From the IMG/VR virus record IMGVR_UViG_2061766007_000442: 64,000 nucleotides of DNA. One strand, given 5' to 3'. Below the pieces are notes generated by a model. That model saw nothing but the letters and a program-made list of their open reading frames with translations. It searched no databases and was not told the DNA's origin. Both the position numbers and the translations under genes were made by a program. Positions 1-54,927 of the stretch are shown here, piece by piece. Source of the stretch: an uncultured virus (IMG/VR IMGVR_UViG_2061766007_000442) (taxonomy: Duplodnaviria; Heunggongvirae; Uroviricota; Caudoviricetes). How positions within the stretch are numbered: the stretch's first letter is position 1; the number at the start of each line of letters is the position of its first letter.

Positions 1-216
1 CAAATCTAAACTGTCATTACGCGCAGTATCAAATCTAAAATGGTCATACTCTTTTTCATGTACTTCCACTCCAAGAGAACGAAGTTTCTCTACAGTATCG
101 TCCGTTGACCCTGTATCTAAAACTACAATATGGTCCGCGGCAGACATAGATTTTACTCACGCATCCACAAATTTAGATTCGTCTTTTGCAATTGCATAAA
201 CACAAATCTTATTCAT
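1..216 (-). CDS. GT2-family glycosyltransferase, N-terminus (runs off window; code 4)
   Basis: MNKICVYAIAKDESKFVDA[TGA=W]VKSMSAADHIVVLDTGSTDDT carries the GT-A motif DTGSTD. The TGA at 157-159 sits at the Trp typical of this family. The RBS/leader is GAGATAAAAGGATG. Confidence 0.85.
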
Positions 217-240
217 CCTTTTATCTCCTTGTTTCTATAA

Positions 241-807
241 TTAACTTATAGTGTATCAAGTTAATGCATTATTAACTTGTTCATCCACATAATTCACAAC
301 TGTTGTTGCAGTAGCTGCAGTAGGAATAATACCAATGGTATTTAATGTATTACTAACAGTAGTATTATTATAAGATATATTTTGAGCATTTAATTGTACT
401 GTATTCATACTATTTAATATACCATTAACTATGCGAATACCAGTTATTGCACTTCCTGCAGGTGCCATTATTCTTGAATCTAAAGCATTAATTGCTTGTT
501 CAATTTTTTCGTCAACATTTCCACCAATACCTATTGCTGATTCTAAATTATCAATAGCTTCTGCAACAGTTTCTTTTGATGATGGCAATGCTATAGAAAA
601 AGTAACAGTACCACCTTCTCAATTAATAGGACAAACTATATCACTATTAATATCATTTAACAAAATACGTCCAAAACCAGTATCGGGAGATACTGGATAC
701 AAATATGCTCTTTCTGCTGAAGATAAATCAGTATGTAAAGTATAATCATATATATCGCCATTAATATTAACTTTAATTATATCTTCAGAACTTAAATTTT
801 CAGCCAT
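241..807 (-). CDS. Putative tail fibre-associated protein, 188 aa (code 4)
   Basis: ORFs 619..807 and 256..588 join in frame through TGA at 619 and 256. TAA stop at 241. Confidence 0.6.
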
Positions 808-950
808 TAATTCAGCGATAATATCAGATGCATCTCCATCATAAGCATTATAAAAACCTTCTGCTGGTTGTTGAAATGTAATAGAACCAAAATCTTTATC
901 TGCGCTAATTTCTCGATAAATAATTTTAGAAGCCGCAACTTCTCCAACAG
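807..950 (-). CDS. C-terminal end of the protein whose body is the displaced segment 1744-2716
   Basis: The reverse complement of 930-950 (CTGTTGGAGAAGTTGCGGCTT) equals the end of the plus segment at 2696-2716. It reads VGEVAASKIIY...DISLN*. Confidence 0.7.
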   Translation of the reverse strand: MLEKLRLLKLFIEKLAQIKILVLLHFNNQQKVFIMLMMEMHLILSLN

Positions 951-1040
951 NNNNNNNNNNNNNNNNNNNNNNNNNNNNNNNNNNNNNNNNNNNNNNNNNN
1001 NNNNNNNNNNNNNNNNNNNNNNNNNNNNNNNNNNNNNNNN

Positions 1041-5279: not shown

Positions 5280-6106
5280 ATGAATAAGATTTGTGTTTAT
5301 GCAATTGCAAAAGACGAANNNNNNNNNNNNNNNNNNNNNNNNNNNNNNNNNNNNNNNNNNNNNNNNNNNNNNNNNNNNNNNNNNNNNNNNNNNNNNNNNN
5401 NNNNNNNNNNNNNNNNNNNNNNNNNNNNNAAGTATGACCATTTTAGATTTGATACTGCGCGTAATGACAGTTTAGATTTAGTTTCTGACGAATATAATAT
5501 TCGTGTATGTACAGATTTAGATGAATTGTTTGAACAAGAAAATTGGGCAGACATTCTTCGAGAAAAATGAGATGAAAATAACCCCAGAGTTATTTATCAT
5601 TATGTATGAAACCATACCGCAGATGGTGAAAATGGTCTTGAATTTGATATTAATAAAATTCATGGCACAGACCCAGATTTGCGGTGGGCAGGTGCGGTGC
5701 ATGAGCACCTTACTTTTATGTCTACTGGTGAACGAATGTTCACTAAATACATAGATTTGAGAAAAGAAATTACTTTGCATCATTATGCAGATTTAACCAA
5801 AGATAGAAGATTCTATATTGAGTTAGCAGAAGAAAGAATTAAAGACCAACCAAATGATATGCAGGCTTATGTTTTATTGGGTAATGAATACCGAGTAAAA
5901 GGATCGCCCGAAAAAGCTATAGAAAAGTATGAAACTGTTTTGAAAAAGTTTTCTAAAGAAATGAATACTGTAGAACAAGCAGCTGTTTATTATGCTCTTG
6001 GAGATGCATATCATAAAACTGGAAATGCGGTTATGGCGATGACTTCATTCTCACATGGTATGGCAATTCATAAGACATATAGAGATAATTATTTTGGTTT
6101 AGCAGT
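5280..6106 (+). CDS. GT2 glycosyltransferase with C-terminal TPR repeats (partial; code 4; variant copy of the gene at 1-216)
   Basis: Motifs RFDTARNDSL, CTDLDE (DxD) and RWAGAVHE, then TPR-like helices (YVLLGNEY, YYALGDAY). ORFs 5280..5570 and 5679..6122 join via two TGA at expected Trp positions (LREK-W, YHYV-W). Confidence 0.8.
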
Positions 6107-6274
6107 NNNNNNNNNNGTTTGATATTAATAAAATTCATGGTATAGACCCAGATTTGCGGTGGGCAGGTGCAGTGCATGAGCACCTTACTTTTATGTCTAC
6201 TGGTGAACGAATGTTCACTAANNNNNNNNNNNNNNNNNNNNNNNNNNNNNNNNNNNNNNNNNNNNNNNNNNNNN

Positions 6275-7332: not shown

Positions 7333-8196
7333 TTATCCCGTACGTTTTCAAATATAAACTCCAAAATAGGGTGGAATGTTGTTATGTGCTGTAGGAGCTA
7401 TAGAAATTGTAGGAGTTACTGTTCCTACAGAACCTTTACTTACATTAAAGGTTTGATAACTAGCAGTAGATGAACCTTTATTAGTTGCAGTATATTGAAG
7501 TGATGCTCCTGACTGTTGAGCATAAGAATTATATACTAATTTTGATTTTCCTGATGTTGCGAAATAACTCGTTGCCTTAGAACCTCCACGAACTGCTACA
7601 TTAAGAGATTCTTGATGATTATGCCAAGCGGTAGTAACAGTTGGTTGAGTAAAACTATGTGTATGTTCAGGTAAAGCACATTGTGATTGAGTTAATGTAA
7701 CCATAGCTTCTCCGCCAGTAGTACTTGTAATATATGCTGCATCACCTGTTGCACCCTCGCTCATGCCAGCAAGAAAACGTCCAGATGCAATTTTTTCTCA
7801 TCTACCACCAAAATGTGATGCTGGAGTAAAATTTGCATCAATGGTTAAATATATACTTCCAATAGGATAAAGCAATTGTCCTAATTCTTGAGAGGTATAA
7901 TCTGTTCTAAATAATTCTCTAGCTTGAGATAATGTTGTTACACCAGTGCCGCCTTGATCAACAGTAACAGGATTATTTAATCCTGTTCCAGATTCTTTTT
8001 GAATAATACTAGAATCATTTCCATTATATTCATCATTATCTATGTATAATTTTGTATCATATTGAATATTGCTAGTACTATCACTAGGTTCTCCTTTTCC
8101 TGATACAATAAGATTATTAGATGCGGCACCTACGTCGGCCGCGGAAATTTCAACCCATTGGTTAGTTTCAGTGTCTTTATATCTAATTTTTGCCAT
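7333..8196 (-). CDS. Tail fibre/baseplate protein with gp10-like C-terminal domain, 287 aa (code 4)
   Basis: YPIGSIY...HFGGR[TGA]EKIASGRFLAG...HNNIPPYFGVYI[TGA]KRTG*. Both TGAs occupy the hallmark Trp of the GGxW and VYxWKRT motifs. Confidence 0.8.
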
Positions 8197-8213: not shown

Positions 8214-10419
8214 CTAATCATCTGGGTCAATTCAAATATTTTGTCCGCTATTACTTGAACCTATACTATTGTTAGCTTCAATTAATACATCTCGTATATC
8301 TCTACCAACGACAAAACAACCATTTTTAATATAAACAGGAGTATATTCATTACCTAAATTTATTAATTCTCCTGATTCACTGTCACATAAACGCATCCCA
8401 TTAATATATTCTGCTAATTGATAAGTTATAGTTGCATTATTTAAAGTAATAGTGGCATTAATATCTGTATATAATTCTTTAATTAAATTCAAAAAACGTT
8501 TATCTGTTTTTAAATCATTTTTACTAATAAAATATGTTGATTCATTATTAATAATTTGATTTGTGTTAACAATAAATCAAACTTTTCCTCCTGTAAAATC
8601 AACATCTTCATAATTAATTAAATTATTATTTCAATATGGATAATGTAACTGTATTGGAGGAATGTTATTAGTGCTGTTTCAAGAATATGATAATGTTAAT
8701 TCATTTGCTACATTATTTCGTGATCTTAGTCTCATTCTTGACCAAATATCACTATAACCATAAATACTTATTAAATTAGAAGTATTATAGTCATTATTAT
8801 TTAATCGTGTAATAGCATAAACATCACTTGCAGTACCAGTATATATTAATTGTCCTGATATAGCAGATCATGCTAAATAAATATTTATATCATTATATTG
8901 TATATTATTTTGATTAATAACATAATCTAAAAATCGTTGTATGAAATTATTATTATTATTATTTGTAATGCCTATACTAACTTCTGTATTATCATTATTT
9001 GTAGTTAAAGTAACTTCTCCTGTAATTGATTGATTGTCTGCAATTTGAATTGAAATAGTTGCCGTTGTTGTTGTTGTTGAAATTGATGAAAAACCTATAT
9101 CACATATATTTAAATTATTGGTATATATATGAATATTATCAATATTCAGATTATCAAATTCAATATCGTCAGGGTCAGAAATAATAGTTTGAGGATTATC
9201 TATACTTATTATATTTTTTTGATTGTCTTGATCATTATATACTTTATTATTTATTGCTATAGAATCTGTATTATTAGTTCAATGATATGCATTAAATTGT
9301 TTATATCTATTAAAATCTATATTAGTATCACCAATAAAATCTAATCATTTCATGGTTAATGTACCAGAATATGATGATAATGTTTCTAAAGTACGTAATA
9401 ATATATTATTATTTTTAATAGTTATTCCAACTTTTATTAATGTATCTATTTTTCAATAATTGTTTTGATTATCATAAATTAAATGCAAAACATATTTAGT
9501 ATTTTGTGAATCTCGTACCATAAATCAAGTATAATCATATGATTTATCTATAATAGTATCTAATTTATTAAAACGATTTAATAATATTCCATTTCCATAT
9601 AATTTTATGGAAACACTTGTGTCAAAAGAAGTATCATTAATCGCTATTAGTTGTCCATCCTCATTAAATGTTAAATTATTAATAATATTTTCACTTCATG
9701 TATTAAATATATCATTATCAATGTTAATATTATTATTATTTTTCATNNNNNNNNNNNNNNNNNNNNNNNNNNNNNNNNNNAAAATTATATGATAAGGATA
9801 CAGTTGTAGTTTCTGTCACTGTAGAATCAATTTGATAAGTATCTAAAGTAAAACTATTATCTGATTTAACATTAGGAACCAATAAATAATCTCCACTTTT
9901 TATATAATCATTAATATCAATAATATCATTTGATACAGCAGTATTAATTTCTTTTGTTAAAAATCTATCTGTTCAATCATCAGATTCAGAAGGTATAATA
10001 GTTATGTTTGTTCCATTTTCTCCATAATAACCAGATGTTGTTACTGATCTTACTATATCATTTACTACAATACTAACACTTGAGTCCTCTGTTGTTTCAT
10101 CAAAAGTTAAAGTGGGATTCATACGATGGACTTCTGAATCCATATTTAAAGCATTTCAATTAATACTATTTTTATTGATAACATTATAAGATTCATCATT
10201 AATAACTGTTTGTGTATTATTTATTCAAATATTGCTTGTTTCTTGTTGCTTATAATTATAAGATTTTGATTTTACTATAAATGAAGTAGGACTAACTGTA
10301 CCAGTAATTGTATAAGTGTTTGCAATTGTATTAGTCGGTCCATAATCTCTAGTTATAATTCATTTATCTCCAGAAGGATGACGTATTTTTTCTCTAAAAA
10401 TATAATTATCTGTAGTCAT
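8214..10419 (-). CDS. Large Asn/Ile-rich tail-associated protein (code 4; one gap)
   Basis: AGGAGG RBS and ATG at 10419. The portions read are open only when TGA=W. Ends ...GQNI-W-IDPDD-TAG at 8214. Confidence 0.5.
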
Positions 10420-10433
10420 TTATCATCCTCCTT

Positions 10434-10715
10434 TTAATCATATGCTACAGTAATAAAAGCATAATTATCTCAATTTTTTGCACCAATATTTATTGTGACC
10501 GATGCATCGTATAAATTATTAAATTCTAATATATCACATTCATTAATTAAATATGAATATGTAACTGTTTCTGACATAGAATTAGTAGTAGAAATAGACA
10601 CCTCATAAGGACTAGCAGTTAAAGGATTTAAGAATAAATGTTCCATTCCTATGTGCATATTAGTTGCAGTAATAGTATGTGTTGGATTAGTTTTATTTAA
10701 TTGTATTATTTTCAT
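10434..10715 (-). CDS. Small virion protein, 93 aa (code 4)
   Basis: ORF 10470..10715 reads through TGA to TAA at 10434, just before the next RBS. Confidence 0.6.
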
Positions 10716-12489
10716 GGTCTATCTCCAAATTGTTCTATTTCTGCTTTTGTTGGATCAGCTGCGGCTAAACCAGTAAAAAATACTGGATTTATACTACTAT
10801 TAAATTCAATATCTTTTTTATCATTATCTTCAAAATATATCATATTAGTGTTTAAATAGACAGAATCATAAATTGTTTGTCCTATTTGTACTCAAAAATT
10901 ATTTTCTACATTTGTATCTTCCTCTATTTTTTCCCGTATACTAATAAATATATCTATANNNNNNNNNNTGCAGCTGTTTTCTCTTCTGCTGTTGATTGAT
11001 CATTATTTATAATATTCTCTAAATCATTTTTAATAAATGTTAAACTATCTGTACTAGGATTCGCTGGTGTTCCTGTTGTACCATAAAGTTCTTTATAATT
11101 TTCGATACCTTCGTTTATAATAATATATGAATTTAATATATCTTCATCAGGTAAACATATATAAAATAAACCTTGTGTTTCTTTAAAGCCTTCAGGAATA
11201 TCCTCTTGTCCTTCTCTTTTCTTTACATCTGTAACTGCTATTATGCCCAAATTTCCAGTAAATTTACCCTCTTGATCCGGATATACTGGATCTGTTGTAA
11301 TTCTAATTTTATCGTTTTCGTCTCATTCTCCTTCTAATTTAACAGTTCAAGGACCAAGACTAGGCGGGCCAACCGGACCTATGTATTTTTCTTCATTTGG
11401 CGCATTAGAATATTGCACATATAAATCATAAGTCCCTTTATTATAATTTGATTTTACTGAAACATTTTCAATTTCAACTACATCACCTAAATAATATAAA
11501 TCTTCTGGAGTAATTAATACTTTTTGATTTTCATCATCAATTCCTCAATAATGAAATTTACCCGCATATACTTTACTTGATGTAATATTTTCAACTACAT
11601 CACCATGTGTATAAGGTGTTTCTCCACCTGGAGTATATTGTATGGTTTCTATGTCATAAAAAACATTTCCATCAGTAACTTCATATATGCCTTCATTTGT
11701 AATATAAGGACCTGAATCTCCTACTGGTATTTTAAACTGGTCTTGTAAATAAAAAGGATTATCATTATCTATTGGAACTCTAATTACCTCAGCTGTTTCA
11801 GTATTACCTATAGATGTAATTTTAGGCTGCGCAAAATCTATATAAGGAATTTCAAAACCTATCCCAAGAGTAGATAATGGTCATTCAGAATTTGCATCTA
11901 TATTACGAACACTTTGAAAAGTATAAAAACCATATTTAAATGCGGGAGTCTTTTCTTCTTTAAAATACTTACTACCTGGTTTATAAATAGAATTTACACT
12001 CTCATCTGTATTTATATATATATCTGTTCCTTGCGTTGGGGTTGCAAAAGTATAACTAACAGTATCACCAGTTTTCTTTTGATAATAAAATACACTACCT
12101 TCTTCTATTTTACCCATCGCGGCTGTTCGCATATCAGATATACTATTTAATTCTACAAAAGGAACACCACCCGCAGGTCCGGTAATACGTCCTACGTATT
12201 CCGCATAATTAGTGTCATCAGCATCTACTGGTACACGATATGCTGTACGACGAAACACCTTACCGTTATCAGGATTATTGCGATTTTGGGTTTGAATTAA
12301 ACAATATTCATCATATCGTATATTATTATAAGGTCTAGTTGTGTCATTTGTTCATTGATTAATATCTGAATTATTATTTTTTAATGGATAATATCCATGA
12401 CCAAAACAATAATTCATTTCATCAATACTATCAAATCTATCTTTAATTATAAAGGAGATACCCTGTTTACCTCCATAAAAGCTATCCAT
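10706..12489 (-). CDS. Tail-associated protein (MDSFYGGKQG...; code 4)
   Basis: GGGAGG RBS and ATG at 12489. Joins ORFs 11881..12258 and 10954..11250 via TGA. Short GPVGP collagen-like patch. Confidence 0.6.
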
Positions 12490-12502
12490 GTAGTACCTCC
12501 CT

Positions 12503-13508
12503 TTAATTATTTGTCATATATTGTACATCAACTGTGTATCTATCAGTTGGAGTGGCTGTTACTGTATTAGCTATANNNNNNNNNNNNNNNNNNNNNNNNN
12601 NCATAATATCCACTTGGACCTATAGATAATTCTTGTCCATTAATAAGCATTAATTGTTCAGACCTACCTCATATTCCAATATTAGTAATAGTATCTGCAC
12701 TATTAATATTTACCGGAGCAACCGTACCGACATTTACTGTAATATCTGTTGGATTAATATAACGACCAGTCATCATTACTCCAGTAGATTCTTCTGTTCA
12801 TCGCAAATCTCTATCTATCTCATTTGGTTTTAAATATAAATAAATAGCATTACAACTAGTTGATGGTGAAAATAAAAATTCTATAGATGCTTTTTCTTCA
12901 GTAGTATCAAAATTATTTGCCGATTTAAAAGTATTTTTCTTAATTATATCTCAATAATTTTTATATTCGCCATCTTCTTTAACTATTCGACCTTCAAAAT
13001 CTCGATAATAAATCTTTTGTTTATTAGTATTTGAAGTATCTTCATAATAATAAAAAGTATTCATATTATTTATATCAATTTCATCATTAGGAATAGAAGA
13101 TATAGCTTTTGCCATTGCTGCATTTATATAAGTATTATTATCTTCTTTAATATAATAATGTCATATAGTGCTAGTTGACATTTTATCTAAATTAGTTTTT
13201 GGTATAGTAATATATTTTATAAATTGATAGTATTGGCTATCTTTTAAATTTTGTGCAGCAGTATTATTTAAATTCATTAATCTAATACCATAATTAAAAT
13301 CATAATTTTTATCTTGTGGCATAGTTAATTTGACTAAATAACAATTTTCTGAAGATAAATTTGTATTAAAATAAATAACTAATTGCTGCATTTTATCTTC
13401 TGTTTGATCATTTAATGAATAAGGGATAGATAATATAGAAGGGGTAGAACTAACTGTTTCAATATTACTACCAGAATATGCATATTGTTTTACATAATAA
13501 TTTGCCAT
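12503..13508 (-). CDS. Tail-associated protein (code 4)
   Basis: AGGAGG RBS. Continues past TGA at 13161 to IGI-W-GRSEQLMLINGQELSIGPSGYY. TAA at 12503. Confidence 0.6.
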
Positions 13509-13517
13509 ACCCCCTCC

Positions 13518-20136: not shown

Positions 20137-20153
20137 ATTTTATCCCTCCTTAA

Positions 20154-20829: not shown

Positions 20830-20840
20830 CCTTTTATCTC

Positions 20841-27628: not shown

Positions 27629-27747
27629 TCTCCTTATATAAAAAATAAAACGGGGATAGTAAGATATACTATCCCCGCACTATGTTTTTCCTTATATCTC
27701 ACTCTTATTATTTCAAAGTTTTAATATAAGTTTTATTTATTTTTACC

Positions 27748-36682: not shown

Positions 36683-36873
36683 TGTTCTCACCTTTCTATA
36701 TGAATAGTCTAGTGAGAACTCCAAGAGTCTCACTGAACTTCCTTTTATCTCTAACTAATTAAAGTAGTATATACCCTAACTAATATAAAAGAAAATAAAA
36801 GAAAATAATAAAAAAACGCCCTGCGGCAGCTACACCACAGGGCATCTGATTAATTTTAGCTAAAATTAATTAA

Positions 36874-42912: not shown

Positions 42913-43219
42913 CGCGTTTCAACCTATCTACTAAACTGCAACACTCGAAAATAGTGCGGCGATACTTCATAAAATCTCCTTCTTCGCCTTCTTCAATTAA
43001 ACCTTCAAGTTTACAAATCAAAGAAAACAAATCTTGTTTTTCAGGAAATAAATTATACATACCTGTTAATTCAAGGGAGATTGTTTCAAGCGGTTTAATT
43101 CATTCTTCGCCCTCTTCCCGCATAGGTAGCAGTTTGAAAATTTGATTACCGACTCTTTTTAAACATTCTCCAAGAGTGTAAGAATCAGTATCAATACTAG
43201 ATTCAAACACACACAACAT
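42887..43219 (-). CDS. Hypothetical head-tail region protein, 110 aa (code 4; absent from ORF track)
   Basis: ATG overlaps the upstream TAA. QIFKLLPMREEGEE-[TGA]-IKPLETI; TAG at 42887. Confidence 0.65.
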
Positions 43220-43710
43220 TATAGTGGCTCAACAATCTGTGTATAGGCAGATAAGAAACTTCCATCTTTATCTTTTTTACTACGTCTGCGGTAGAGACGT
43301 TGTAGATGGAAACCTTTTTGTTCATATTGGGCTTTAAGTGCTGAAAGTTGTTTAATATGACTAGCTTGTGAAGTAAATTTAAAATCAGTACCGCTATATT
43401 TTTGTCTAATCAAATCTATAGTTGCAAGTTGATAACCAATTCACTCACTAATCATATATTCACGAATTATCATTTTTTCTTCAAGATTTAGTTTAACACC
43501 AAAAGTTTTATTTTCTAAATCAATAGAATCAAATAAATTCTTTTCTAGTGGAAATTCAAAGTGCGGCAATGCTGCCAAAAGAATTTCTTCCAATAATTCT
43601 TCTGTATCTTCCCTAGTCATTTCCATAAACATATCATCTGTAATACCAGCTAGGAAAAATTCAAATTGTTCTTGGAAAGGAGTGACTTCCGCAGTTGTCT
43701 CTTCTGGCAT
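43219..43710 (-). CDS. Putative head-tail adaptor, 163 aa (code 4)
   Basis: ORFs 43441..43710 and 43219..43413 join: YMISE-[TGA]-IGYQL...DFKFTSQASH. Confidence 0.7.
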
Positions 43711-43730: not shown

Positions 43731-44273
43731 TTATTTGCGAACTCGCCTTCCGCTAGACAATGTTTGAGTTTCAACTCTACGAGTGTGCGGTGCTTCAGCT
43801 GCCGCGGGATTATCTGCTTCAAGCTGTTCTTTTAACTGAATCATATTATTAATATCGACACCAGTAATATCTTGAATTGCTTTTCTTCTATTGGTGTCGG
43901 GAATTCTCAACTGTACAGCCCTGTCAATTAGCAATTCTTTAATACCATCAGGGCCAAACTCTAATGCATCCATTAGTTCATCCATAGGACGAGACGTAAG
44001 CGCCGCATCAACATCACGAAGTGTCCAATCATATTCTATCATGCTTGGGTCAACTCCAAATTCTTGACGAAGCTCTTGGTCTTTGATGCATAAATAATTA
44101 TGTAGAAGAATACGTCCACCATGTTGATAATTTAAACGACGTAATTCATCTACTTGAACTTTCTTTGTTTCAAAGGGATTAAAAACAACCCTACGATTTA
44201 ATTCATCAATCTTATAAACAACCATATGGTCTACAAGATTACGAACCTCGACAACATCTTTGTCTTGTAACAT
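43731..44273 (-). CDS. Head-associated hypothetical protein, 180 aa
   Basis: Intact ORF with GAGATAAAAGGAG leader, following the capsid unit. Confidence 0.65.
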   Translation of the reverse strand: MLQDKDVVEVRNLVDHMVVYKIDELNRRVVFNPFETKKVQVDELRRLNYQHGGRILLHNYLCIKDQELRQEFGVDPSMIEYDWTLRDVDAALTSRPMDELMDALEFGPDGIKELLIDRAVQLRIPDTNRRKAIQDITGVDINNMIQLKEQLEADNPAAAEAPHTRRVETQTLSSGRRVRK

Positions 44274-44308
44274 AATTTTCTCCTTTTATCTCTTTTTTTA
44301 AAAAAATA

Positions 44309-44336
44309 AGGGGAGGGAGAAAACGTCTCCCTCCCC
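44309..44336 (-). terminator. Intrinsic terminator closing the capsid(+extension) transcript
   Basis: GGGGAGGGAGA-cgttt-TCTCCCTCCCC followed by TTATTTTTT on the minus strand. Confidence 0.75.
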
Positions 44337-44428
44337 GAATTAAATTAATGTTCGGACACAATACCAATATATATGTTATATTATTTATAATAATATGTTT
44401 GGTTTATGTGACCATTGAACATATTATA

Positions 44429-45025
44429 TTATTGCTTTGTAACAATTGCAATATTATTATCTATTGTTATGTTACTGGTACTTGCAACATAATTTGCGAT
44501 AGCATATATGGTTTTTTCTGCAGGATTAAAAATACCACTGTAAATTACAATTGTTGCTTTATTGGTACGTCCATTTACTGCTTCGGTTGCACCATATACA
44601 TTTACATTATCCATATAACAAGATACATTGTTACTAGCTGCTGTCATTATAATAGCTGTATAACCATCTTTTATATTTTTAATGTTAATATTAGATAATC
44701 TTAACGTTCCATGTTCTCCTAAAATAGTTGGAGTAATACTTTCTGATTGTATTGTTCCATGTGTATCACTAATATTATCTGTATTAGCAAGGTCAGTAAT
44801 AGTAACTTCAATATCATCTCTAATTATTAGGTGACCACCATCATTCAAAATTAAAGAATAACCATGCAAATCAATATTAACAGAATTAGTTATTAGTAAA
44901 TCATTATCACAATTAATATTATCTGTTACAACAATTCAAGTATTACTATTAGCATTATTAATTGCAGTTTTAAGAGAATTAAAATTATCTACATATATCT
45001 CATTAGTATCGTCGCCCGGGTCTAC
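44429..45025 (-). CDS. 198-codon in-frame extension of the capsid gene (candidate readthrough product; beta-rich surface domain)
   Basis: Same frame as the capsid, immediately after TAG at 45026-45028. No RBS-linked start. One internal TGA (44936-44938). The SLKTAINNA...IDLHGYSL pattern resembles the start of beta-helix-like surface-protein domains. Confidence 0.6.
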
Positions 45026-46298
45026 CTACGGAGTAGTTGTACTTGTAGGTGTAGCTGTACCAGTGGGTGTTACTGTACCAGTAGGTGTTACTGTACCAGT
45101 AGGTGTTACTGTACTACTATCATCAGGAAGGTTATGTAAACGTGTTTCCTTCTTGAGATCTGTGTTGCGATAGCTAAGCATGAAGTTTGTGAAGAATGTA
45201 GCAATACCAAACTTCTGATATGTCTGGAAGTCTGTGCTCCAGTCATCATTATCTTCGCATGTACGGACGCAAGCGCCACCCTCGAAGACTAGCTTAACAG
45301 GCTTCTCGGCACCAACAGGCATAATGTAAGCTTGGGCAGGATCGATAACCTTCTCAGTATTGGTTTCATCAACNNNNNNNNNNACATGTGCGGACGCAAG
45401 CGCCACCTTCGAAGACTAGCTTAACAGGCTTCTCGGCACCAACAGGCATGATGTAAGCTTGGGCAGGATCGATAACCTTCTCGGTATTGGTTTCATCAAC
45501 CATAGACTGAGGAAGGATAATAACTTGGTGACCCTTGTAGTTGCCAAGCATACCATTGGCCCAGAGAGTGTCCTTCATGTTATCGGAGACCCAGCCCTCA
45601 GCAGGAAGCATCTTAGCAGCAAATTCAGCTGTGCAATAGATAGCAGAGCGGCCATAAGCATCGCCAATAGCTAGAAGTTCGTCCATTGTGGCCTCATCGA
45701 AACCAGCAACCTCCGCACGTTGAACGGCAGGAAGGTTCTGAACTGTAGCCTCAAGAGCCTTAGCAATCTCACGATAAATGTATTCATCCATACCCTCGAT
45801 AACGAGAGAGGTTAGGTCAGAGAATTGGATGCGGCCATCAAGGAATTCCTCGAAACCGATGCGAGCAGCGCCACCGATAGCAGCTGTCTGAACTTCAATC
45901 TCACGACCATCAAGCATGAAGACTTCGTAACGACCAGCGAGACCAACGCGGGTAACGAAATTCTTCTTAGCACGCTGACGAGCAGCCTCTGTGATGCGCT
46001 GACGGAAGATAGCCTTATCGCCCTGAGCAACACGCTGAACCTCAGCAAATTGCATATATTGCTGTTCAACCTTTGCAGGTAGAACTTCATTAATTGATTC
46101 CTCAATTAGACGGAAAATTGTATTCTGATTTTCCTTGTATGTACGATAGTCAGGTGCAAGAGCACGGAACTCTGTAGCTAAAGCTTCGTTGACCTGATCT
46201 AAAGAAAATGTTTCTTCACCAAAGGAGTAAGCAACTGGAGCCTTTGGATCGGCAGAAACAGCAATGCGAGCTAAGTCGCGTAGTTCTTTATAATCCAT
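45026..46298 (-). CDS. Major capsid protein (~381 aa after removing a ~127-nt assembly duplication)
   Basis: Follows portal, protease and decoration-like genes. GGAGGG RBS, high-expression codon bias, no TGA, and a C-terminal (TVTPTG)n tail. Confidence 0.85.
45029..45118 (-). repeat. 18-nt tandem repeat encoding a Thr/Pro-rich linker STVTPTGTVTPTGTVTPTGTATPTSTTTP
   Basis: Repeated ACTGTACCAGT(A/G)GGTGTT units. Confidence 0.9.
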
Positions 46299-46318
46299 TA
46301 TATGCTTCCCTCCTTCAA

Positions 46319-46828
46319 TTAGCTAAGAGATGTGACAGACTTGATGCACTGTAATTTAACAGCCGGTTGACCATCAGGAAGTGTGTACTCCTTGACAACA
46401 CGGAAAACAACGTCGCCATTACTACCAGCGGCAAGAATACCGTCGTCGCCAGGTGTAACGTCGTCGCCGACCTCAAGTTCTGTATTATCTGCGAACATAT
46501 TTGTTGTGAAAATATCACCAGCTACAATGCCGAAAACACGAGGATAGATCTTACCATCATAAGAGTCTTCTACCTTCTGTGCCCAGTCCTTGTGCATCTG
46601 GTGACGCTCATCATAAAGCTTTTCCTCGTTATAAACAAGCATCCAAGCGCCGTCACCATCGAAGTTGACTTCACCCGCAGCATAGTCATATTTAACAAAC
46701 ATACCGTTTTCAAGGACTTCAATGCCCTCTGCGGCGGGAAGCTGCGCATAGACGCGACCATCACGAGGAGCGGATAAATGATTAGGCTCTACCTGACCAT
46801 ATCCATCGCGTTTAATGGTAATTGCCAT
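46319..46828 (-). CDS. Head decoration/capsid accessory protein, 169 aa
   Basis: Lies between scaffold and capsid. Same GC-rich codon bias as the capsid; TAA stop. Confidence 0.65.
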   Translation of the reverse strand: MAITIKRDGYGQVEPNHLSAPRDGRVYAQLPAAEGIEVLENGMFVKYDYAAGEVNFDGDGAWMLVYNEEKLYDERHQMHKDWAQKVEDSYDGKIYPRVFGIVAGDIFTTNMFADNTELEVGDDVTPGDDGILAAGSNGDVVFRVVKEYTLPDGQPAVKLQCIKSVTSLS

Positions 46829-46850
46829 GTTAGCACTTTCCTCCTTTAAT

Positions 46851-48239
46851 TTACTTGTTTACTGTTTGACGGAGTGCTTGAACCAAACTAGGAACAAACC
46901 CCGCAACTTCATCATCTAGTGAGAATGTCATTGTCGGATCTTCTTCTTCCTTAACAGGCTGCTCGGCCTCGAAGCTAATATCTTCAGGCTGACCAGTTAA
47001 AGATTCAAAATCGACATTCTTGTGGACATAGATGACTGCCAGCTTAGACTCAATTTCTTCTAAGCTATACTCTGATTTGTGCTCAATAACATCTGCTTTA
47101 TCTTCATCAGAAAGCATATGATATGAGTTAATCAATGCATCCTTTTGCTGATTTTCAATGCCTAGCTTGAATTCACGTAACTCTTCTACCTCTGCGCGTA
47201 AGGAAGAAAGTTCGCTCTCCATAGCTTCAAATTCCTCTAATGAGTGATTTGTTGGCTTTTCTTCGTCCTCTTCTTCATCATCCTCATCTTCAGGCTCTAC
47301 TTCTTCGTCCTCGGAATCGTCCTTGTCGTCATCCTTAACGAATTCAGTTTCACCCTCGGGTTCGTCAGAAGAATCGTCAGCAGCACCGTCCGCATTACTA
47401 TAATCAACGACTTCTTCAGCTACAGGCTCTTCGACTGTTTCTTCAACAGCGAATTCCTCTGCAGGAGCTTCGGCCGCAGATTCATCAACAATTTCTGTTT
47501 GCTCTGCAAACTCGTCAGGCATACTCGACCCTCCTTTGCTTTGTAACGCTTCTTTTAATTCATTCATCATCGTAAATAAGGTTCGCTCAAATTCTTGCCT
47601 ATTGGAAAAATCTTTGCTAACCTCAGGAGATGTAACAGCACTACCTTCAAAGCAAGGTTCTACGTCATCCCCAAGAATGCACAGCTTACTAAAAACTGCG
47701 TCATTAATAATGAAAAACTCAACTCCGAGATTATTATCCGTTGCCCAATGTCCATCTAAAGTTTTATCATCAAGTTCCATTGACTGTGGTTGGCCTTGTG
47801 TAATTACTTTGTTAAGTTCTTCAAACTGACCAGACCATAAATAGCCTGTAGTCATTAAATAAGTGCGTTCAACTTGGTTCTGGAATTCATCAGTATCAAT
47901 AAAATTCTGGAACCATACTGGCGCATCTGGAGAAACAAAACCATAAGGAATTGTCTTACAAGAAAAAGTAAGTTCTCCATCTTCAATGTGCATGATATGG
48001 CCATGATCACCAAAATCTTCTTTCTGGTCATTCCAAGCAGCCACAATAGGTGTCCCCCGCAATGTCTTAGCCATATCCTCCGCAGTTGAACGATTAATAT
48101 AGGAACCATTGCGATTATGTCCAAGATAAAATACTTTAATTTCACACTTAGACATAAGAGGGTTAATATCCAAAGGTTCTAAATTAATAAACTGCGGCCC
48201 TTGAATTGCATTAACTTCAGAAATATTCTTTAAAGCCAT
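46851..48239 (-). CDS. Prohead protease/scaffold protein, 462 aa
   Basis: N-terminal HNRNGS...QSMEL...LCILGDDVEPCFEGS protease-like region and a highly acidic scaffold-like C-half. Confidence 0.75.
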   Translation of the reverse strand: MALKNISEVNAIQGPQFINLEPLDINPLMSKCEIKVFYLGHNRNGSYINRSTAEDMAKTLRGTPIVAAWNDQKEDFGDHGHIMHIEDGELTFSCKTIPYGFVSPDAPVWFQNFIDTDEFQNQVERTYLMTTGYLWSGQFEELNKVITQGQPQSMELDDKTLDGHWATDNNLGVEFFIINDAVFSKLCILGDDVEPCFEGSAVTSPEVSKDFSNRQEFERTLFTMMNELKEALQSKGGSSMPDEFAEQTEIVDESAAEAPAEEFAVEETVEEPVAEEVVDYSNADGAADDSSDEPEGETEFVKDDDKDDSEDEEVEPEDEDDEEEDEEKPTNHSLEEFEAMESELSSLRAEVEELREFKLGIENQQKDALINSYHMLSDEDKADVIEHKSEYSLEEIESKLAVIYVHKNVDFESLTGQPEDISFEAEQPVKEEEDPTMTFSLDDEVAGFVPSLVQALRQTVNK

Positions 48240-48250
48240 ACAACCCTCTC

Positions 48251-49804
48251 CTAACTCGCAGATTCTCTATTTTGTATTGTTTTTTCGGATTTTTGGTCAT
48301 CTGGTAATTCAGGGCGACCACCTTCCGAAGTAGGAGCATTACTATCACCTTTCTCTGTTTTATTATTATTACCACTCATAGTAGATGACATTTGCGGTGG
48401 AATAAATAACTCTTCCAAATGCAATAATTCATTCTCAAAATAAGCAGTTGCCATAACAGTACTTTGTGACTGCCCCAAAGCAACCTGTGGTAATAACTTA
48501 GAGAAACCAATTTGTGTTTGCTCTTTATATGTCTTAGATAAGTCTTTATAATTATAAATAGTAGTTGGTAACATAGTTACTTTATACTTTAAACGCTTTG
48601 TATTTTTATTAAAAGGCTTAAGTAAGCTTTCCGCATATTCCTCAAACTGTAATAATAAATCTGTCATTGTAGCTTCGTCGTTAGCAATTGATTTCTCCAA
48701 AGCAATATTACCATCTGTATTAAATTGCTTTTGACTAACACCAGCTTCATTATAAACAGTTCTTTCAACTTTGTCAAGTTGGTCAGCAGAACTCATATTA
48801 CCATTATCAGATAAATCTTCGACTTTAACATCTGCCAAAGTGGTTAAAACGCTAATTCCAATAGCGTCTCCAACCATTTCAACAGCATTATTATGAAATG
48901 CTTGAATTTCAGGTATATCAAAAATAGATTCACCATTTTTATCTAATGGCATCTCTTGAATAACTAAACGTAAAAGCTGTTGCTCCATACGTTTTTTATC
49001 TAAATCCTGGGCATCTTCTAAGTCTAAGAGCTTAGGGATAACCGCAACAAATAACGGAATATCGGTGTTACTAAGATTAAACTTAACAGTCCTATCTGGA
49101 TCCAGTACAAACCACCCTGATTCATCACCATTAAAATCTTTCTTTAGCGTACCGCGCTTATATGATAAATAAGCTTTTCTAAATTCTTCTGGGAATAATT
49201 TAAGTACTCTAATTTTATAATCAGCATCCGCAAATTTATCGTCAAAATATTTAATGTTAAACTCAACAATTGGTTTGCCATTAATTTTATAACGACTGCG
49301 GCAATAGTCTGGATGCAATTCTTGTAAATAAGCAGCTTCTCTTTGTTCTACCTTATAGCCATAATAACATCCATTTTTTACAACTTTAAGTGCGATTTCC
49401 CCAAAGTTCTTTCTTAGTCTACAATTATCCAAGAGGTTAGAAGCTTTATATCAACCTTCGATAATCTTCTCAGGTTTAATTTTATCATCATAAACTATCG
49501 GAGTAATCATTCAATCGTAACGATATAAATAAGCAATATATCTACAAAGACGCATATAAATACCATTCATAGCAAAATATCTTTGAGATATATCCCGCAA
49601 AGTTTTAATATCTTGTTCAGCTAAAGCTCTAACAATATCTTTACGTCTAAATGGACGATGGCGATGTCTATCAAATTTATAATCTACATCAAAAAATACA
49701 TCATTAGATAAAGTAGTTTTACCTATTTTAATTTTATTAAAATCCCTAGAGGTATGCGGGGATTCTGACTGCGAAGTTATTTTAAAATCGTTTGCGGTAG
49801 CCAC
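48251..49804 (-). CDS. Portal protein, 517 aa (code 4)
   Basis: ORFs 49511..49804 and 48251..49432 join via two TGA (YRYD-W, IEG-W). C-terminal GGRP motif; located between terminase and protease. Confidence 0.8.
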
Positions 49805-49815
49805 CGCTCACCTCC

Positions 49816-50172
49816 TTAATAACCTGCCGCCTTCATAATATACTCATACGTTATTTTAGGTTCATCATAATAAGGTATAGTAATTAATTTAATATTATGA
49901 TCTAAGCAGTATTTTCGTTTTTGTGTATCGTTGTATTTTTGCCTGCTGACACCACGTTGCCCACCAAATTTGCTTACGCTAGTATAGTGTTGTCGCCCTT
50001 GGGCTTCAATTAGAAAATCTAATGACCCATCCTCCGCAAAGCAAGCAAAATCAAAACGTAAAGCTCTTCCGCTTGACGCTATTAAATCATCGAAACTATA
50101 TTCCTCTTCAAAAGGAATACCATAATCAGTTAAAATATTATGTATTTTAACTTCTAAACTCGAAGCTAACAT
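49816..50172 (-). CDS. PD-(D/E)xK / Vsr-like endonuclease-fold protein, 118 aa
   Basis: LRFDF...LIEAQGRQHY...DTQKRKYC...IKLITIPY pattern. Confidence 0.7.
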   Translation of the reverse strand: MLASSLEVKIHNILTDYGIPFEEEYSFDDLIASSGRALRFDFACFAEDGSLDFLIEAQGRQHYTSVSKFGGQRGVSRQKYNDTQKRKYCLDHNIKLITIPYYDEPKITYEYIMKAAGY

Positions 50173-50229
50173 CAGTTTCTCCTTTTGCGCTATCTAATAA
50201 ATATTAAAATTATCTTATTTTAAATTATT

Positions 50230-51993
50230 CTATCTTACCCCAATTTTTTTACTATAAAACATTAAATCATTTGGATTAATCTTTGGACGTTTGCCTCGTT
50301 TATCTTCTTGTAATTTACACCAATATAAACCATAAATTAAAGCAGAAAATTTGTCCTTCTTGATTTTTTTAGAAGATTGTTTTAATATAATATGTGCACC
50401 ATCGTTTTCTTGAATTAAGTTTAACATTTGGTCTTTCAAGATAGAGGTCTGCACAAACGGTTGCAGGTACTCTGCACGCTTTACCGCACTCATCTTTTTA
50501 CCTTGCTCTTGGGCAAGTAATTTATTCTTTGCAATATTTTCATCTACTAAGAATTTAATGCGGCCTGCGCTCATTTGGGATTGACAATATGCATACATTT
50601 CTGAGTTCAAACTTTGATTTGCTTTCATAATATACATGGCGTTATGAATTGTATTTTCTGTCTCCATAGACTTATATACTCTATCTTCATCATTATAAAC
50701 GCCTCAATTAAATAATATCTCGCCTGTATCTGGGTCAGTTGTATCCATAGTCAACATATCTACGAGTCCCGCGCCCAGGCCGTTACCGTCGATGACGGCT
50801 ATGCGGCATTTAAATTGATTAAATAATCTTTTAATTTTAATCGCTTGCATACCAAAATGTTCTTCATCAAAAGAATAAATATTTACTAGACGTTTCAACA
50901 TTGCACCGGACGCCGCAGGTGTAACCTTGATAATACACACTTCAGTAGTACATCCAAAACGTCCAACGTCAACGCCCATAATATAATATCCCTCTTTAGA
51001 AGTTTTATTACTATATTTATATTCTGGAAGATTAATAATTCTATTTTTATCAAATTTAGATGATTCAAAAAAGGCAGACTCAATATCGCCAGTTCATTTA
51101 GATTCATACTCACGTTCAAATGATGCTTCGTTAAATGTACCATCTAATTTTAAGTCTTTAACAAAACTTTTTTGTAATAATCCTTCAATAACAGGAACGC
51201 GCCAAGAACCACCAAGAATCATTGCTTCTTTTGGACGCGCAACTGCTTTACATAATAATTGAATTAGTTTTTCATATGAGAACGTATTTTTGTAGCCCGC
51301 AGTAGTAACAAAAATTTGTGACTTGTTTAATACTTCGTCATCATCTGGTCCTCAACCAGGAATTCGTCTATTGACATTCAATGTTGGTATAATTACTTCA
51401 TTTAGAATATCTTGATCAATACCAACGCACTCTTCCATTAAACCAGCTTGGAAACGCCTACCCCTTGTTTTCTCGGTCGCCGCAACATTCTCTAATGTTG
51501 AACCATTCTTAAAAGTATATATAACACTATCTTTAGTTTGCGACGTACGCGCTCTCGTGCCTCGTGTATCTCATATAATTTCTTTTTCAAAAGCAGGTAT
51601 TAACTTACAAATTTCACCCACTTTGCTAGATAGAATTTGTGCAGACTGTTCTTTGCCGCCCGCAACAGTGAATAATTGTGAACCGGGATATAAAATAGCT
51701 TTAATCATTAAACACATAACTGACATAAAAGATTTTGACCATGCACGCACAAATGTAGCAAAAACATATCTGTGCCGCATAACAACTCTTAAGAATAATC
51801 TTTGATAAAAGAAAAAGTGAAATGAATTATCTGGGTTTAAACTACATAAAAAATCTACAAATCTATCTGGATAAACTCTTCAAAAAGCTATAATTTTTCT
51901 TAAATTATCTATATTCTTTAAAATAGTTTCTTTAGTAATCTCTTCTTCTTGTTCTCTAGTTTTTTGATTGGAGATAAGTGTATCTAGTGACAT
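50230..51993 (-). CDS. terL: Terminase large subunit, 587 aa (code 4)
   Basis: Walker A-like RAWSKS, Walker B LMEE, coupling motif VTTAG, FEREYESK-[TGA=W], nuclease MGVDVGR and KDKFSAL. One uninterrupted frame with five TGA. Confidence 0.92.
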
Positions 51994-51995
51994 AA

Positions 51996-53806
51996 CTACT
52001 CCTCTCCAAGAGACTCTAACAACTTCTCTGCGTCTTTTTCTATTTCATTTTCTAAAAACATCTGAAATTCTTCAGCCTCGTCGTCCGTCAATGCGTCGGC
52101 CGCAAGTTCTTCACTAGATGTAACTAAACCTTCTTCAAGACTTAAGTCACCTTCTTGTTCTGCTTTCTCTAACTTTNNNNNNNNNNGAACATCTGAAATT
52201 CTTCAGCCTCGTCATCTGTCAACGCGTCGGCCGCAAGTTCTTCACTAGATGTGACTAAACCTTCTTCAAGACTTAAGTCACCTTCTTGTTCTGCTTTTTC
52301 TAACTTTTCAATATAAGACTCAATCAAATCACCTAAACCAAGTTCAGTAGTAACTAAACCATATGTGTATGATTTCAAATCTCTAATAGTAAAATCTATT
52401 TTGTCTTGCGGATATTCATCTGGGTCAATGTACTGTGGAATCGGCCCACCTTCTTGCTCGCATAAAGCAATTAATTCTCCAACAGAATCAAGATAACGTT
52501 GTTTATCTTCTTTGTTTTGAGCTTCAGTAAATTTACCAGACTTCCGCAACTGGTCAAATACTGTAGCTAAACTTTTATAACCATTAACATCGCCAACATC
52601 TAATGTTTCATCCATTTTCAAAGAAGTTTTACACATTTTCTTTAATACTTCTTCGCGGTCAACATTTAATTCATATTCATTAGCATAACGTTTATACATT
52701 GTCTCCATTGCAATTCATTGCGCAGGTGTATAAACTGTACCTCACTTTAACATTAAGAATTGTATATCATCATCTGTAAGGGAATCAGTAATAGCAGATT
52801 CATCAATTTGATATTTAGGTAAGTCAGGTATCTCGAACTCAGGTGTGGAGTTCGACGACGCTGTCCCCGCAGACAATGTATTATATTGTGCTTCTGTTAT
52901 TTCTCCATTTTCTAGCTTAGTTAATAACTCTTGTTCTCTCTCTTGGGCAGCTGCGATTGCTGCGTCTGATTCTTGCTGTTGCTTCTTGTCCGCAAAATTT
53001 AGTTTATCAGTATCCGCATAACTATANNNNNNNNNNGTCCCCGCAGACAAAGTATTATATTGTGCTTCTGTTATTTCTCCATTTTCTAGCTTGGTTAATA
53101 ACTCTTGTTCTCTCTCTTGGGCAGCTGCAATTGCTGCGTCTGATTCTTGTTGTTGCTTCTTGTCCGCAAAATTTAGTTTATCAGTATCCGCATAACTATA
53201 CTGCTTATATTGAACCATGTTCATCGCCCGCAAATAGCGCCCTATTACAGACTTAGGGCCGAATGAACCAGGATTCTTTTTATATGTTTCATTACATAGT
53301 TGTACTCATTTTTTCTCGATGTAAGGTACATCAAACTTTTCTAAAATTCATGTAAAGGTTTCAGGTTTGCGGTTATCTATATACATAGTTAAACANNNNN
53401 NNNNNTAAATCTCTAATAGTAAAATCTATTTTATCTTGCGGATATTCATCTGGGTCAATATACTGTGGAATCGGCCCACCCTCTTGCTCACATAAAGCAA
53501 TTAATTCTCCAACAGAATCAAGATAACGTTGTTTATCTTCNNNNNNNNNNCTATTACAGACTTGGGGCCGAATGAACCAGGATTCTTTTTATATGTTTCG
53601 TTACAAAGTTGTACTCATTTTTTCTCGATGTAAGGTACATCAAATTTTTCTAAGATTCATGTAAAGGTTTCAGGTTTGCGGTTATCTATATACATAGTTA
53701 AACAATCTTTACAAATATCGTCGCGGTGTCCTGTTTTTAGCTTAAAGAATTCAGTCTCCGGTCGCGACCTCCCGCACTTTGTACAGGTTATGCGTTCTGT
53801 TGCCAT
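51996..53806 (-). CDS. Zn-finger-containing protein, probable terminase small subunit (code 4; several duplicated fragments)
   Basis: MATERITCTKCG...ICKDC, then FT-W-ILEKFDVPY and LMLK-W-G via TGA. Lies directly upstream of terL. Confidence 0.55.
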
Positions 53807-53853
53807 AGCTGCTCCTTTTTTCTCTATAAAAAAAGCCCCGCAGGGCTTTTATT

Positions 53854-54927
53854 TTATTTGGTTTTTCCATTTTTACAATCTTTGCATTGAGAATACCAAC
53901 CATCTTTAGAAGAATTCTTGGAGAAGAAAGCAGGGTGTCCTAACTTGACCTTCCCGCATTTGGTGCACTCTTTCCAATAGCCATATTCAACATTAGTATA
54001 GTATCATACTAGATAATCTTTTTGTGCTTGTTCAGCTAATAAACGTGGTATTCTTTTGCGTCAAAGAGAAGAGTAATATTGTTCAGAATGTCACTCTCCA
54101 TAGTCATCATATATAGCTAGTTGTATTTGTTCATTAGTAAGACCATCTATTTTTCAAATAACTAAGTCGTAAAGAATGGGATAGTCTTCTGCGAGAACAT
54201 CATCAACAAGGTTTTCTAAGTCTATTAATAGTCAATGCATGTCGCATTGAGTATCATCCCAACATTCTTCTTTTAATTTAGAATAATAGCAAAGTAGGAA
54301 AGAAATGTGGTTGGGGTTTAATAATGATAATATTGCATCTGATACAGGCATTTGATTTTCATCAAAGTGTACTTTTTCATCTATGTCTAGCTTAGTTAAA
54401 GTTTTTAATTGAGCGGAGCGGACTCGGCCGTTTGCTCCTTTTCAAGATGCTTTAAGTAGGTAGGCTTGTTGTCAAGTTTCAATTATTGTTTTCTTGAGAG
54501 AGTAACGTGCGGGGCCCCTTGCATGTTGGAACTGACGTTGCAAGGAATCTATTGTGTTGATGAGGTCCCGCATCCCTGGAATAAGGTCTTTTTCCTCTTC
54601 TGTTATTGGGTCTTTTGGATCCAGGATTTGATTTTTGTCATTGTTTATCATGGCGTAGATGCCATCTTCTCCATTTTCTAAGTTGGAGACTATTTCCTCG
54701 TAGGATACCTGACGTTTATTAATTGTTGCTTCACGATTCTTTGTTAATGTAGGATATTCAGATTTTTTTTCTCTCTTTGTTTGATTGCGGTCTTGCGTAA
54801 ATAATATATAATTAGACATGTATAATAAATATTGTGGTGTAAGCTTTTCGTCAGGAGTTTCAGAAAGTAATTTATTAACACACTCTATTCTTTCTTCTGG
54901 AGTGGTTAAGCTGTAGTCTAGTTGCAT
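53854..54927 (-). CDS. Putative transcription regulator (sigma region 4-like HTH plus C-terminal Zn ribbon), 357 aa (code 4)
   Basis: AGGAG RBS and ATG at 54927; seven in-frame TGA. KIDGLTNEQIQ...YYSSL-W-RKRI is helix-turn-helix-like, followed by CTKC...CKDC. Confidence 0.5.

Follow-up and report, generated by a model that had tools for sequence, protein, structure and literature searches.

Is TGA read as tryptophan (Trp, W) in the late genes of an uncultured virus and, if so, what decodes it, and in which kind of host? The question is raised by a stretch of 64,000 nucleotides (hereafter, the window, meaning the whole stretch analysed) from the IMG/VR record IMGVR_UViG_2061766007_000442 (Duplodnaviria; Heunggongvirae; Uroviricota; Caudoviricetes), in which a block of virion and packaging genes on the minus strand of positions 1-55020 appears broken when translated with the standard code. 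A preliminary reading made from the letters alone (the sequence-only reading) had noticed that most ORF (open reading frame) fragments of this strand end at TGA and resume in the same frame. The comparative analysis of the reading frames confirms this observation. Indeed, 54 of the 85 ORFs called greedily under translation table 11 in positions 1-55000 end at TGA, vs 3 of the 18 in 55001-64000, and the share of the window covered by stop-to-stop ORFs of at least 300 amino acids (aa) rises from 12.2% under table 11 to 61.2% once TGA is a sense codon (from 14.2% to 71.2% within 1-55000). Reading TAG (16.8%) or TAA (19.9%) as sense hardly extends the ORFs, and both remain stops.

The same picture emerges from coding density, a comparison that the sequence-only reading had proposed. 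A greedy set of non-overlapping genes consists of 103 genes with a mean length of 138 aa and a coverage of 66.6% under table 11, and of 66 genes with a mean of 287 aa and a coverage of 88.5% under table 4, where all stops are TAA or TAG by construction (tables 4 and 25 yield identical ORFs). The table-4 set contains 168 in-frame TGAs; on the minus strand, 136 TGA stand beside 67 TGG, which confirms that TGG is in use too, and about two thirds of the tryptophans of the window are spelled TGA. At least one TGA occurs in 33 of the 41 minus-strand genes up to 55.1 kb. The table-4 genes are separated by a median gap of 68.5 nucleotides (nt), and one of the motifs GGAG, GAGG and AGGA lies at positions -20 to -4 of 23 of the 41 minus-strand genes, compared with 8% of random 17-mers. 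The full-length products that had been predicted are also recovered: a large terminase subunit of 587 aa and a portal protein of 517 aa, both with TAG as stop, and a tape measure expected at about 2,890 aa, which is found as pieces of 2642 and 356 aa cut only by a gap of 10 N.

Which residue does TGA stand for? The five motifs that had been quoted as conserved Trp sites, i.e., REYESK-W, GGR-W-E, VYI-W-KRT, FDTGGYTGA-W and FVDA-W, all have TGA at the W (51094-51096, 7798-7800, 7348-7350, 28069-28071 and 157-159, respectively). To this we can add an alignment of the minus-strand table-4 proteins of the window, cleared of three overlapping alternative-frame ORFs, to the late regions of four relatives without TGA recoding (Enterococcus phage H1, Geobacillus virus E3, Alicyclobacillus phage KKP_3916 and an unannotated phage contig from human faeces) and to a piece of the TAG-recoded phage phAss-1. 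At 32 TGA sites (96 aligned cells) W leads with 43 cells, followed by Y (16), F (8), G (5) and others (24), the background of W among the aligned subject residues being 0.9%; this is neither the glycine nor the random assortment that would have spoken for another meaning of the codon. W is the majority residue at 14 of the 32 sites, and the BLOSUM62 sum opposite TGA is best for W (445), with Y next (174). The residues facing the TGG codons of the window have the same profile (W 21, Y 15 and F 13 of 65 cells), and four recoded relatives tallied in the same way have W in 47-55% of 113-183 cells each. When codons are aligned with those of the standard-code relative G005, TGG stands opposite 44 of 75 TGAs of the window. 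With the recoded relative G001, TGA (61) or TGG (25) stands opposite 86 of 111, and the TGG of the window faces TGA in 16 of 63. Since TGA and TGG exchange between orthologues, the two act as synonyms. Judged by these alignments, TGA in the late genes is a second Trp codon next to TGG, and TAA and TAG keep their role as stops (code 4), as the sequence-only reading had maintained for the whole late operon.

The window belongs to a group in which the genetic code is not uniform. Its terminase shares 31-52% identity with its counterparts in large siphophages of Bacillota (Enterococcus, Geobacillus, Alicyclobacillus, SPbeta-like Bacillus and Lactococcus 949-like) and 42% with that of phAss-1, while the terminases of its two closest relatives, G001 and G009, are 90-92% identical. 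G001, the nearest long relative (130.6 kb, rated 90% complete), has the same gene order as the window (70-86% nucleotide identity), and the relatives G001-G004 measure 125-143 kb. Of 53 related terminase loci in IMG/VR, an ORF-coverage test assigns 24 to TGA recoding, one to TAG recoding and the rest to the standard code; phAss-1, a TAG-recoded GenBank entry, lies outside these loci. A quick maximum-likelihood terminase tree (52 rows, all read with TGA as W; seven loci with less than 70% coverage were left out) places the window in a TGA-only group of seven (SH-aLRT, the SH-like approximate likelihood ratio test, 98), nested in a group of 24 that includes six standard-code rows. At least two changes of the TGA state are needed over this tree; within a single terminase clade, comprising some 50 loci, TGA recoding was gained or lost at least twice. 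As for the habitat, the stretch from terminase to portal is found in 18 DNA runs from 12 studies whose labels name the gut of cattle or sheep, or the rumen; each of these runs contains 47% or more of the words sampled. The window derives from a phage of the bovine and ovine rumen or gut.

The sequence-only reading had supposed that the host uses the standard code and that the phage supplies or induces the decoding of UGA. The window itself shows neither; indirect support comes from its relatives, whose replication genes (in G001) are poor in TGA and which, in five of the six examined, carry a tRNA (transfer RNA) with anticodon UCA. Nine Pfam-annotated replication and nucleotide genes of G001 (two pol III alpha parts, DnaB, an AAA_24 protein, a ligase, GyrA, GyrB, a RecJ-like protein and NrdD) contain 3 TGA and 50 TGG, vs 111 TGA and 62 TGG in 19 late genes (Fisher p = 3e-15), and three GIY-YIG endonuclease genes wedged among the replication genes contain 14 TGA and 4 TGG. 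A standard-code host would have to translate the early genes first, and TGA-poor replication genes would therefore be expected; a code-4 host gives no reason for the split. Genes of at least 100 aa with an in-frame TGA make up 38-63% in G001-G004, a share whose floor is high because the same crude gene calls already give 30% in the standard-code G005. In the 'Agate' preprint (Borges et al., bioRxiv 10.1101/2021.08.26.457843), the genes with recoded TGA amount to 26-71% in phages of standard-code hosts and to about 90% where phage and host both use code 25. The hosts of the cultured relatives (Enterococcus, Bacillus, Lactococcus, Geobacillus and Alicyclobacillus) are all Bacillota; the GH25 lysin of G001 matched only Bacillota in a search of a genome collection (43-51% identity), a hint at the level of the phylum at most, and the presence of NrdD in G001 points to an anaerobic host. 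From the codon asymmetry of one relative and the hosts of distant cultured ones we infer a standard-code host within the Bacillota.

What, then, might decode UGA? The relatives with a tRNA(UCA) are G001, G002, G004, G006 and G009. In three of them the gene is unsplit and 94-97 nt long (G002 76722-76818; G004 18170-18266; G006 94246-94339), and in the two closest to the window it is split by an intron (G001 115149-115436, i.e., L094 15149-15436, plus strand; G009 42993-43282, i.e., L128 2993-3282, minus strand); both split genes were found by ARAGORN with introns allowed and were missed in G001 and G009 by standard tRNA tools. The 5' exon has the same sequence as the initial 33 nt of a tRNA(UCA) gene without intron on the IMG/VR contig L156, and the insert (192-194 nt, ending in G) matches Intron_gpI with 41.9 bits (E 1.7e-9 in a 401-nt search), under the gathering score of 50. 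Joining the exons after U and after the intron-terminal G restores the loop CUUCAAA, so that the split lies between anticodon positions 34 and 35; the anticodons 'tta' and 'gca' called by ARAGORN rest on other exon boundaries and were set aside. By synteny with G009, the split gene would be expected about 9-12 kb past the right edge of the window. Of the other decoding genes that the sequence-only reading had thought worth searching for, neither a release factor nor a synthetase gene was found in the window, nor an RF-1 domain (PF00472) in G001-G005, nor a TrpRS/TyrRS-type synthetase (PF00579) in G001-G004 and G006 (TrpRS, tryptophanyl-tRNA synthetase); of that expectation, the tRNA(UCA) stood, in the relatives.

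The tRNA(UCA) of all five relatives has a long variable arm, the loop of which resembles that of the anticodon arm in the tRNA-Trp(CCA) genes of these phages (CUCCAAA in G004 and G005). Two scans of IMG/VR for tRNA(UCA) without the arm motif in the query, a sample and not a census, returned at least 193 loci and at least 42 distinct tRNA(UCA) of at least 85 nt. Among the 42 listed, 19 have UCCA in the loop of the predicted variable arm, to which L224 can be added, where the hairpin finder had picked a different stem; in most of these tRNAs the first nucleotide is A and the last two are U72-G73. The remainder are mostly of the selenocysteine type, with long stems and loops of 3-5 nt, and four are of uncertain type. 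Pooled with a motif-directed scan (loci L131-L169 and L170-L362), the two-armed set comprises 41 distinct sequences with stems of 4-7 base pairs and 25 different inner stem sequences, in which stem pairing is 100% by construction, the stems having been defined by stacking; the loop is CUCCAAA in 15, GUCCAAA in 7 and a close variant of these in the others. The flanks of 10 kb around the tRNA loci are ambiguous as to recoding, because tRNA clusters sit in ORF-poor regions, and recoding was judged on samples of 60-80 kb per contig: 7 of 7 further contigs with a two-armed tRNA are TGA-recoded in such samples, the count for all carriers tested being 10 of 10. The selenocysteine-type tRNA(UCA) lack the Trp-type loop, and none of three contigs carrying them is TGA-recoded.

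It is possible that the extra arm acts as an identity decoy that may let the host TrpRS charge the tRNA(UCA), which would fit the absence of a phage synthetase. A literature search found no published description of a two-armed tRNA(UCA), of its anticodon split or of a decoy role; the accessible part of Mukai et al. (PMC5389517) makes no mention of Trp, and the phrase 'variable arm' does not occur in the text of PMC12636597. More tentative, and in our opinion rather doubtful, is the idea that splicing inside the anticodon and charging by TrpRS through the CCA-loop arm form a two-step gate in one RNA, encoded just beyond the window.

Other RNAs were observed in the surroundings of these tRNA genes. 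The tRNA cluster of G001 holds a second intron-containing tRNA (106255-106940, plus strand), whose 595-nt insert contains an ORF and has a 3' end resembling that of the tRNA(UCA) intron; its anticodon is UUA according to ARAGORN and possibly UUU by intron alignment, and a similar 3' exon is found in G004 at about 70026-70045 (minus strand). In a tRNA-like element at 107098-107168 of G001 (40.8 bits, not called by ARAGORN) the acceptor and D arm are good, but the anticodon stem pairs poorly, the T-loop is odd and there is no UCA. ROOL RNAs lie in or beside the tRNA clusters of G001 (112384-112985, 348 bits) and G003 (27575-28233, 284 bits), and a weak YrlA (Y-RNA-like) match (33.9 bits, below gathering) directly follows the tRNA(UCA) of G002 at 76840-76956.

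On the whole, we propose that the window comes from a rumen/gut phage that reads TGA as Trp in its late genes, infects a standard-code host of the Bacillota, keeps its early genes free of TGA and switches to the late genes by means of a tRNA(UCA) of its own; we assign to this joint reading a probability of about 0.8. According to this model, the early replication genes, being free of TGA, would be readable by the host machinery, and the late genes would become readable once the phage produces its tRNA(UCA). In G001 and G009 the gene of this tRNA is interrupted by the group I-like intron between positions 34 and 35, and it may be through the CCA-type hairpin of the extra arm that the host TrpRS is still able to recognise and charge the tRNA. 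The recoding would delay the translation of the virion genes and probably also of the lysis genes, as in the model proposed by Borges et al. for the 'Agate' phages. Several observations weigh against this proposal. No tRNA was found in the 64-kb window by ARAGORN with and without introns or by Rfam at E up to 0.1, nor by a manual search for NUUCARN hairpins with a T-loop after them; a scan of the window for the motif of variable arm and T-arm gave three chance matches only, inside coding sequence, and weak Rfam matches at 59-63 kb (BSnc120, STnc180 and beta_tmRNA) were inspected and are not tRNA-like. Exact matches to the 33-nt core were confined to G001, to G009 and its longer source record, and to one contig of 2.2 kb; none of these overlaps the window. 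Moreover, the TGA-recoded relative G003 (L103-L110, 143.5 kb, rated 100% complete) has no detectable UCA tRNA and no group I intron at the gathering score, nor were a tRNA-Trp, an RF-1 domain or a TrpRS-type synthetase found in it; not every member of the family, therefore, has a phage tRNA. The standard code of the host is deduced from the codon asymmetry of one relative and from the hosts of distant cultured ones, and at one TGA of the terminase all five aligned relatives have Gly.

How do the rival explanations compare with this proposal? The reading of TGA as Trp might not need a phage tRNA(UCA) at all, if a near-cognate host tRNA-Trp(CCA) decoded UGA while release factor 2 (RF2) was weakened by some phage factor. 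The decoder was indeed found neither in the window nor in the complete relative G003; UGA suppressor tRNAs occur in only 35% of code-4 phages, according to the part of Borges et al. at hand (bioRxiv 10.1101/2021.08.26.457843), and UGA reading by variants of tRNA-Trp(CCA) is documented in the excerpt available of PMC13092985. However, the window is only about half a genome, and the split tRNA(UCA) of the two closest relatives escaped the standard finders, so that its absence elsewhere may be a failure of detection; we consider this explanation unlikely. Slightly less likely still is a host that itself uses code 4, a rumen bacterium similar to Mycoplasmatales, whose code the phage would simply mirror with no switch involved. 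A G+C content of about 25%, as seen in the tail genes, is typical of code-4 bacteria. In favour of such a host are also the recoding found in nearly all 10-kb bins of G001, the lack of a UCA tRNA in G003 and the classification of Mycoplasmatales in the Bacillota, as given in the same excerpt of PMC13092985. These points are countered by the replication genes of G001, which use TGG almost exclusively while the neighbouring endonucleases and the late genes favour TGA, by the phages' own tRNA(UCA) in five of six relatives, by the presence of TGA in only 38-63% of genes and by the known hosts of the cultured relatives, which are standard-code Bacillota.

The remaining two explanations concern the codon itself, and to both we give a negligible probability. 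TGA might stand for Gly (code 25), as in phages of Absconditabacteria/Gracilibacteria; the ORFs would be identical to those of table 4, and the terminase site just mentioned would be accounted for. That site, however, is in a variable loop with Gly on both flanks and provides all five of the Gly cells among the 96, whereas Trp occupies 43 and Gly is outside the best six residues by BLOSUM62 sum, so that a Patescibacteria phage with code 25 is ruled out by the residue tally. Alternatively, there might be no recoding, the frames being interrupted by sequencing or assembly errors, by pseudogenes, by selenocysteine or by occasional readthrough, a view to which the poor scaffold, with 44 N runs and duplicated gap flanks, lends some colour. 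Nevertheless, the frames are broken by TGA alone, 168 times, and not by TAG or TAA, and the same sites, which are Trp sites, have TGA or TGG in independent contigs of other samples; ORF coverage, residue tally and the exchange of TGA and TGG rule this view out.

That gut phages recode stop codons had been mentioned by the sequence-only reading as already known, and this is borne out by the description of the 'Agate' phages, virulent TGA-recoded phages of about 127 kb from cattle and other animals. In the part of that source available (Borges et al., bioRxiv 10.1101/2021.08.26.457843), the clade has a mean genome size of 154 +/- 27 kb, the analysed TGA lineage being that of about 127 kb; structural and lysis genes use TGA as Trp, the replication machinery uses the standard code, and intron or homing endonuclease genes are rich in TGA; codes 11, 15 and 4 occur within one terminase clade, a suppressor tRNA is present in some genomes only, and Firmicutes are the predicted hosts. 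The codon split between late, replication and GIY-YIG genes (as tested in G001), the mixed-code clade, a suppressor tRNA in some relatives only, a probable host among the Bacillota and the gut habitat recur in the window or in its relatives, the two groups being compared by description only; as to size, the window is a piece of 64 kb, and G001-G004 have 125-143 kb. The split, two-armed suppressor tRNA of the relatives studied here is not mentioned for 'Agate' in the same part of the text. The phage of the window is most likely one more member of this described TGA-recoded group, and the phenomenon is a known one. A second point of comparison is phAss-1 and the proposed Phassvirus, reported, in the portion of Babkin et al. 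2023 (PMC10607447) at our disposal, as gut phages of about 136 kb with recoded late genes, suppressor tRNAs, no dedicated synthetase and a suggested Clostridia/Bacillota host. Besides the terminase, the likeness extends to the late-gene recoding, to the lack of a dedicated synthetase and to the suppressor tRNAs, which for the window are those of its relatives; the difference is that phAss-1, as described there, reads TAG as Gln (code 15) with three tRNA(CUA), whereas the window reads TGA as Trp.

The standard-code relatives (Enterococcus phages H1, VRE9_4 and EF1, Geobacillus virus E3, Alicyclobacillus phage KKP_3916 and SPbeta-like Bacillus phages) share a collinear arrangement of terminase (31-44% identical to that of the window), portal, head genes and a tape measure of about 2,600-2,900 aa, but they are without in-frame TGA and have TGG at the TGA sites of the window. 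With the code 4 of Mycoplasmatales/Entomoplasmatales the window shares TGA as Trp beside TGG, TAA and TAG as stops and an AT-rich genome; there, however, the code is permanent and cell-wide, whereas here it is uneven between late and early genes (in G001) and accompanied by a phage-borne tRNA in relatives.

The window represents roughly the virion and packaging half of a large tailed-phage genome, and it is a gapped scaffold with 44 N runs (1430 N in total) between 951 and 63186; some of its gene ends are therefore artefactual. Many joins of 10 N have identical sequence on either side, e.g., 28891-28900, 53027-53036 and 58584-58593; these are unmerged contig overlaps, which create false gene ends and internal duplications in the translated proteins, as in the tape measure and in the products of 52169-53386 and 58237-59061. 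The G+C content is about 25% across the tail-fibre and baseplate genes (4000-28000) and climbs to 40-45% at the right end (44000-64000); the usage of TGA peaks in the AT-rich part, with 11 TGA to 1 TGG in 8214-9830 and 6 to 0 in 13518-15005. The rightmost region (55021-64000, no strand assigned) has a G+C content of 42-45%, small ORFs, many 10-N gaps, a repeated ORF family and weak synteny with the left end of G001. Its table-4 ORFs give mostly implausible translations rich in Arg, Cys and Ser and without family matches; the only match, weakly Rz-like (57116-57574), is free of TGA and hence independent of the code. Recoding is not claimed for 55021-64000, where it cannot be shown. A segment roughly 130 codons long, with more than one open frame on either strand, is repeated here (62160-62860), in G001 (170-585 and 127570-128025) and at several places in G002 and G004, recurring within and between the genome ends of the relatives.

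The late block on the minus strand, with a few plus-strand genes interspersed, starts with a sigma-factor-like protein bearing a zinc-ribbon/HNH-like C-terminal tail (53854-55020; phrog_5767, E 8.7e-37; 7 TGA and 4 TGG) at the head of the operon, followed by a conserved protein of unknown function (52169-53386; phrog_3314; 4 TGA), interrupted by one of the 10-N gaps with duplicated flanks. The large terminase subunit (50230-51993; phrog_2 and others) holds five in-frame TGAs and shares 43-52% identity with the terminases of Enterococcus, Geobacillus and Alicyclobacillus phages. It is intact in the window; the terminase gene of G001 (9436-12545) is split by a group I intron (L089 11190-11420, 93.4 bits) with an ORF, and longer terminase matches occur also in several other IMG/VR relatives. 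A small HNH/homing-endonuclease-like gene without TGA (49816-50172; phrog_9084, E 1.1e-25) lies between the terminase and the portal (48251-49804; phrog_2739, E 3.9e-89; 2 TGA). Then come the head-module genes (45294-48239; phrog_3313, phrog_35301 and phrog_4088, to which the libraries give no function), with few or no TGA, and a virion structural protein of 431 aa (38871-40166; phrog_2729, E 3.8e-50), which has none.

The tape measure, of about 2,900 aa (27748-36733; PF10145, E 2.3e-28; phrog_4211 on both pieces), consists of the pieces 28805-36733 and 27748-28818, with 20 and 4 TGA, respectively, separated by the gap at 28891-28900; its orthologue in G001 has 2924 aa. The AT-rich tail, baseplate and fibre genes (8214-27628, about 25% G+C) are mostly without family matches and show the highest use of TGA. 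They are followed by a baseplate/tail-fibre protein with a Gp10_C domain (7333-8196; PF21939, E 3.1e-18), in which the GGR-W-E and VYI-W-KRT sites both are TGA. On the plus strand, a glycosyltransferase-like protein with TPR repeats (5280-6128; phrog_13126, E 3.1e-31, and TPR families) contains three TGAs.

From a practical point of view, the contig of the window and at least 24 related IMG/VR loci are fragmented under table 11 and need table 4 for their annotation, with a mean gene length about twice as high. The most interesting questions lie outside the window, i.e., the split two-armed tRNA and the way in which genomes like G003 read UGA without one having been found. With its intron and its second arm, the tRNA(UCA) found in the nearest relatives is a candidate route by which a stop-reading tRNA might be charged by an unmodified host synthetase. 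If the two-step gate were true, the translation of the whole late operon, 55 kb in length, would hinge on RNA splicing and on an identity decoy.

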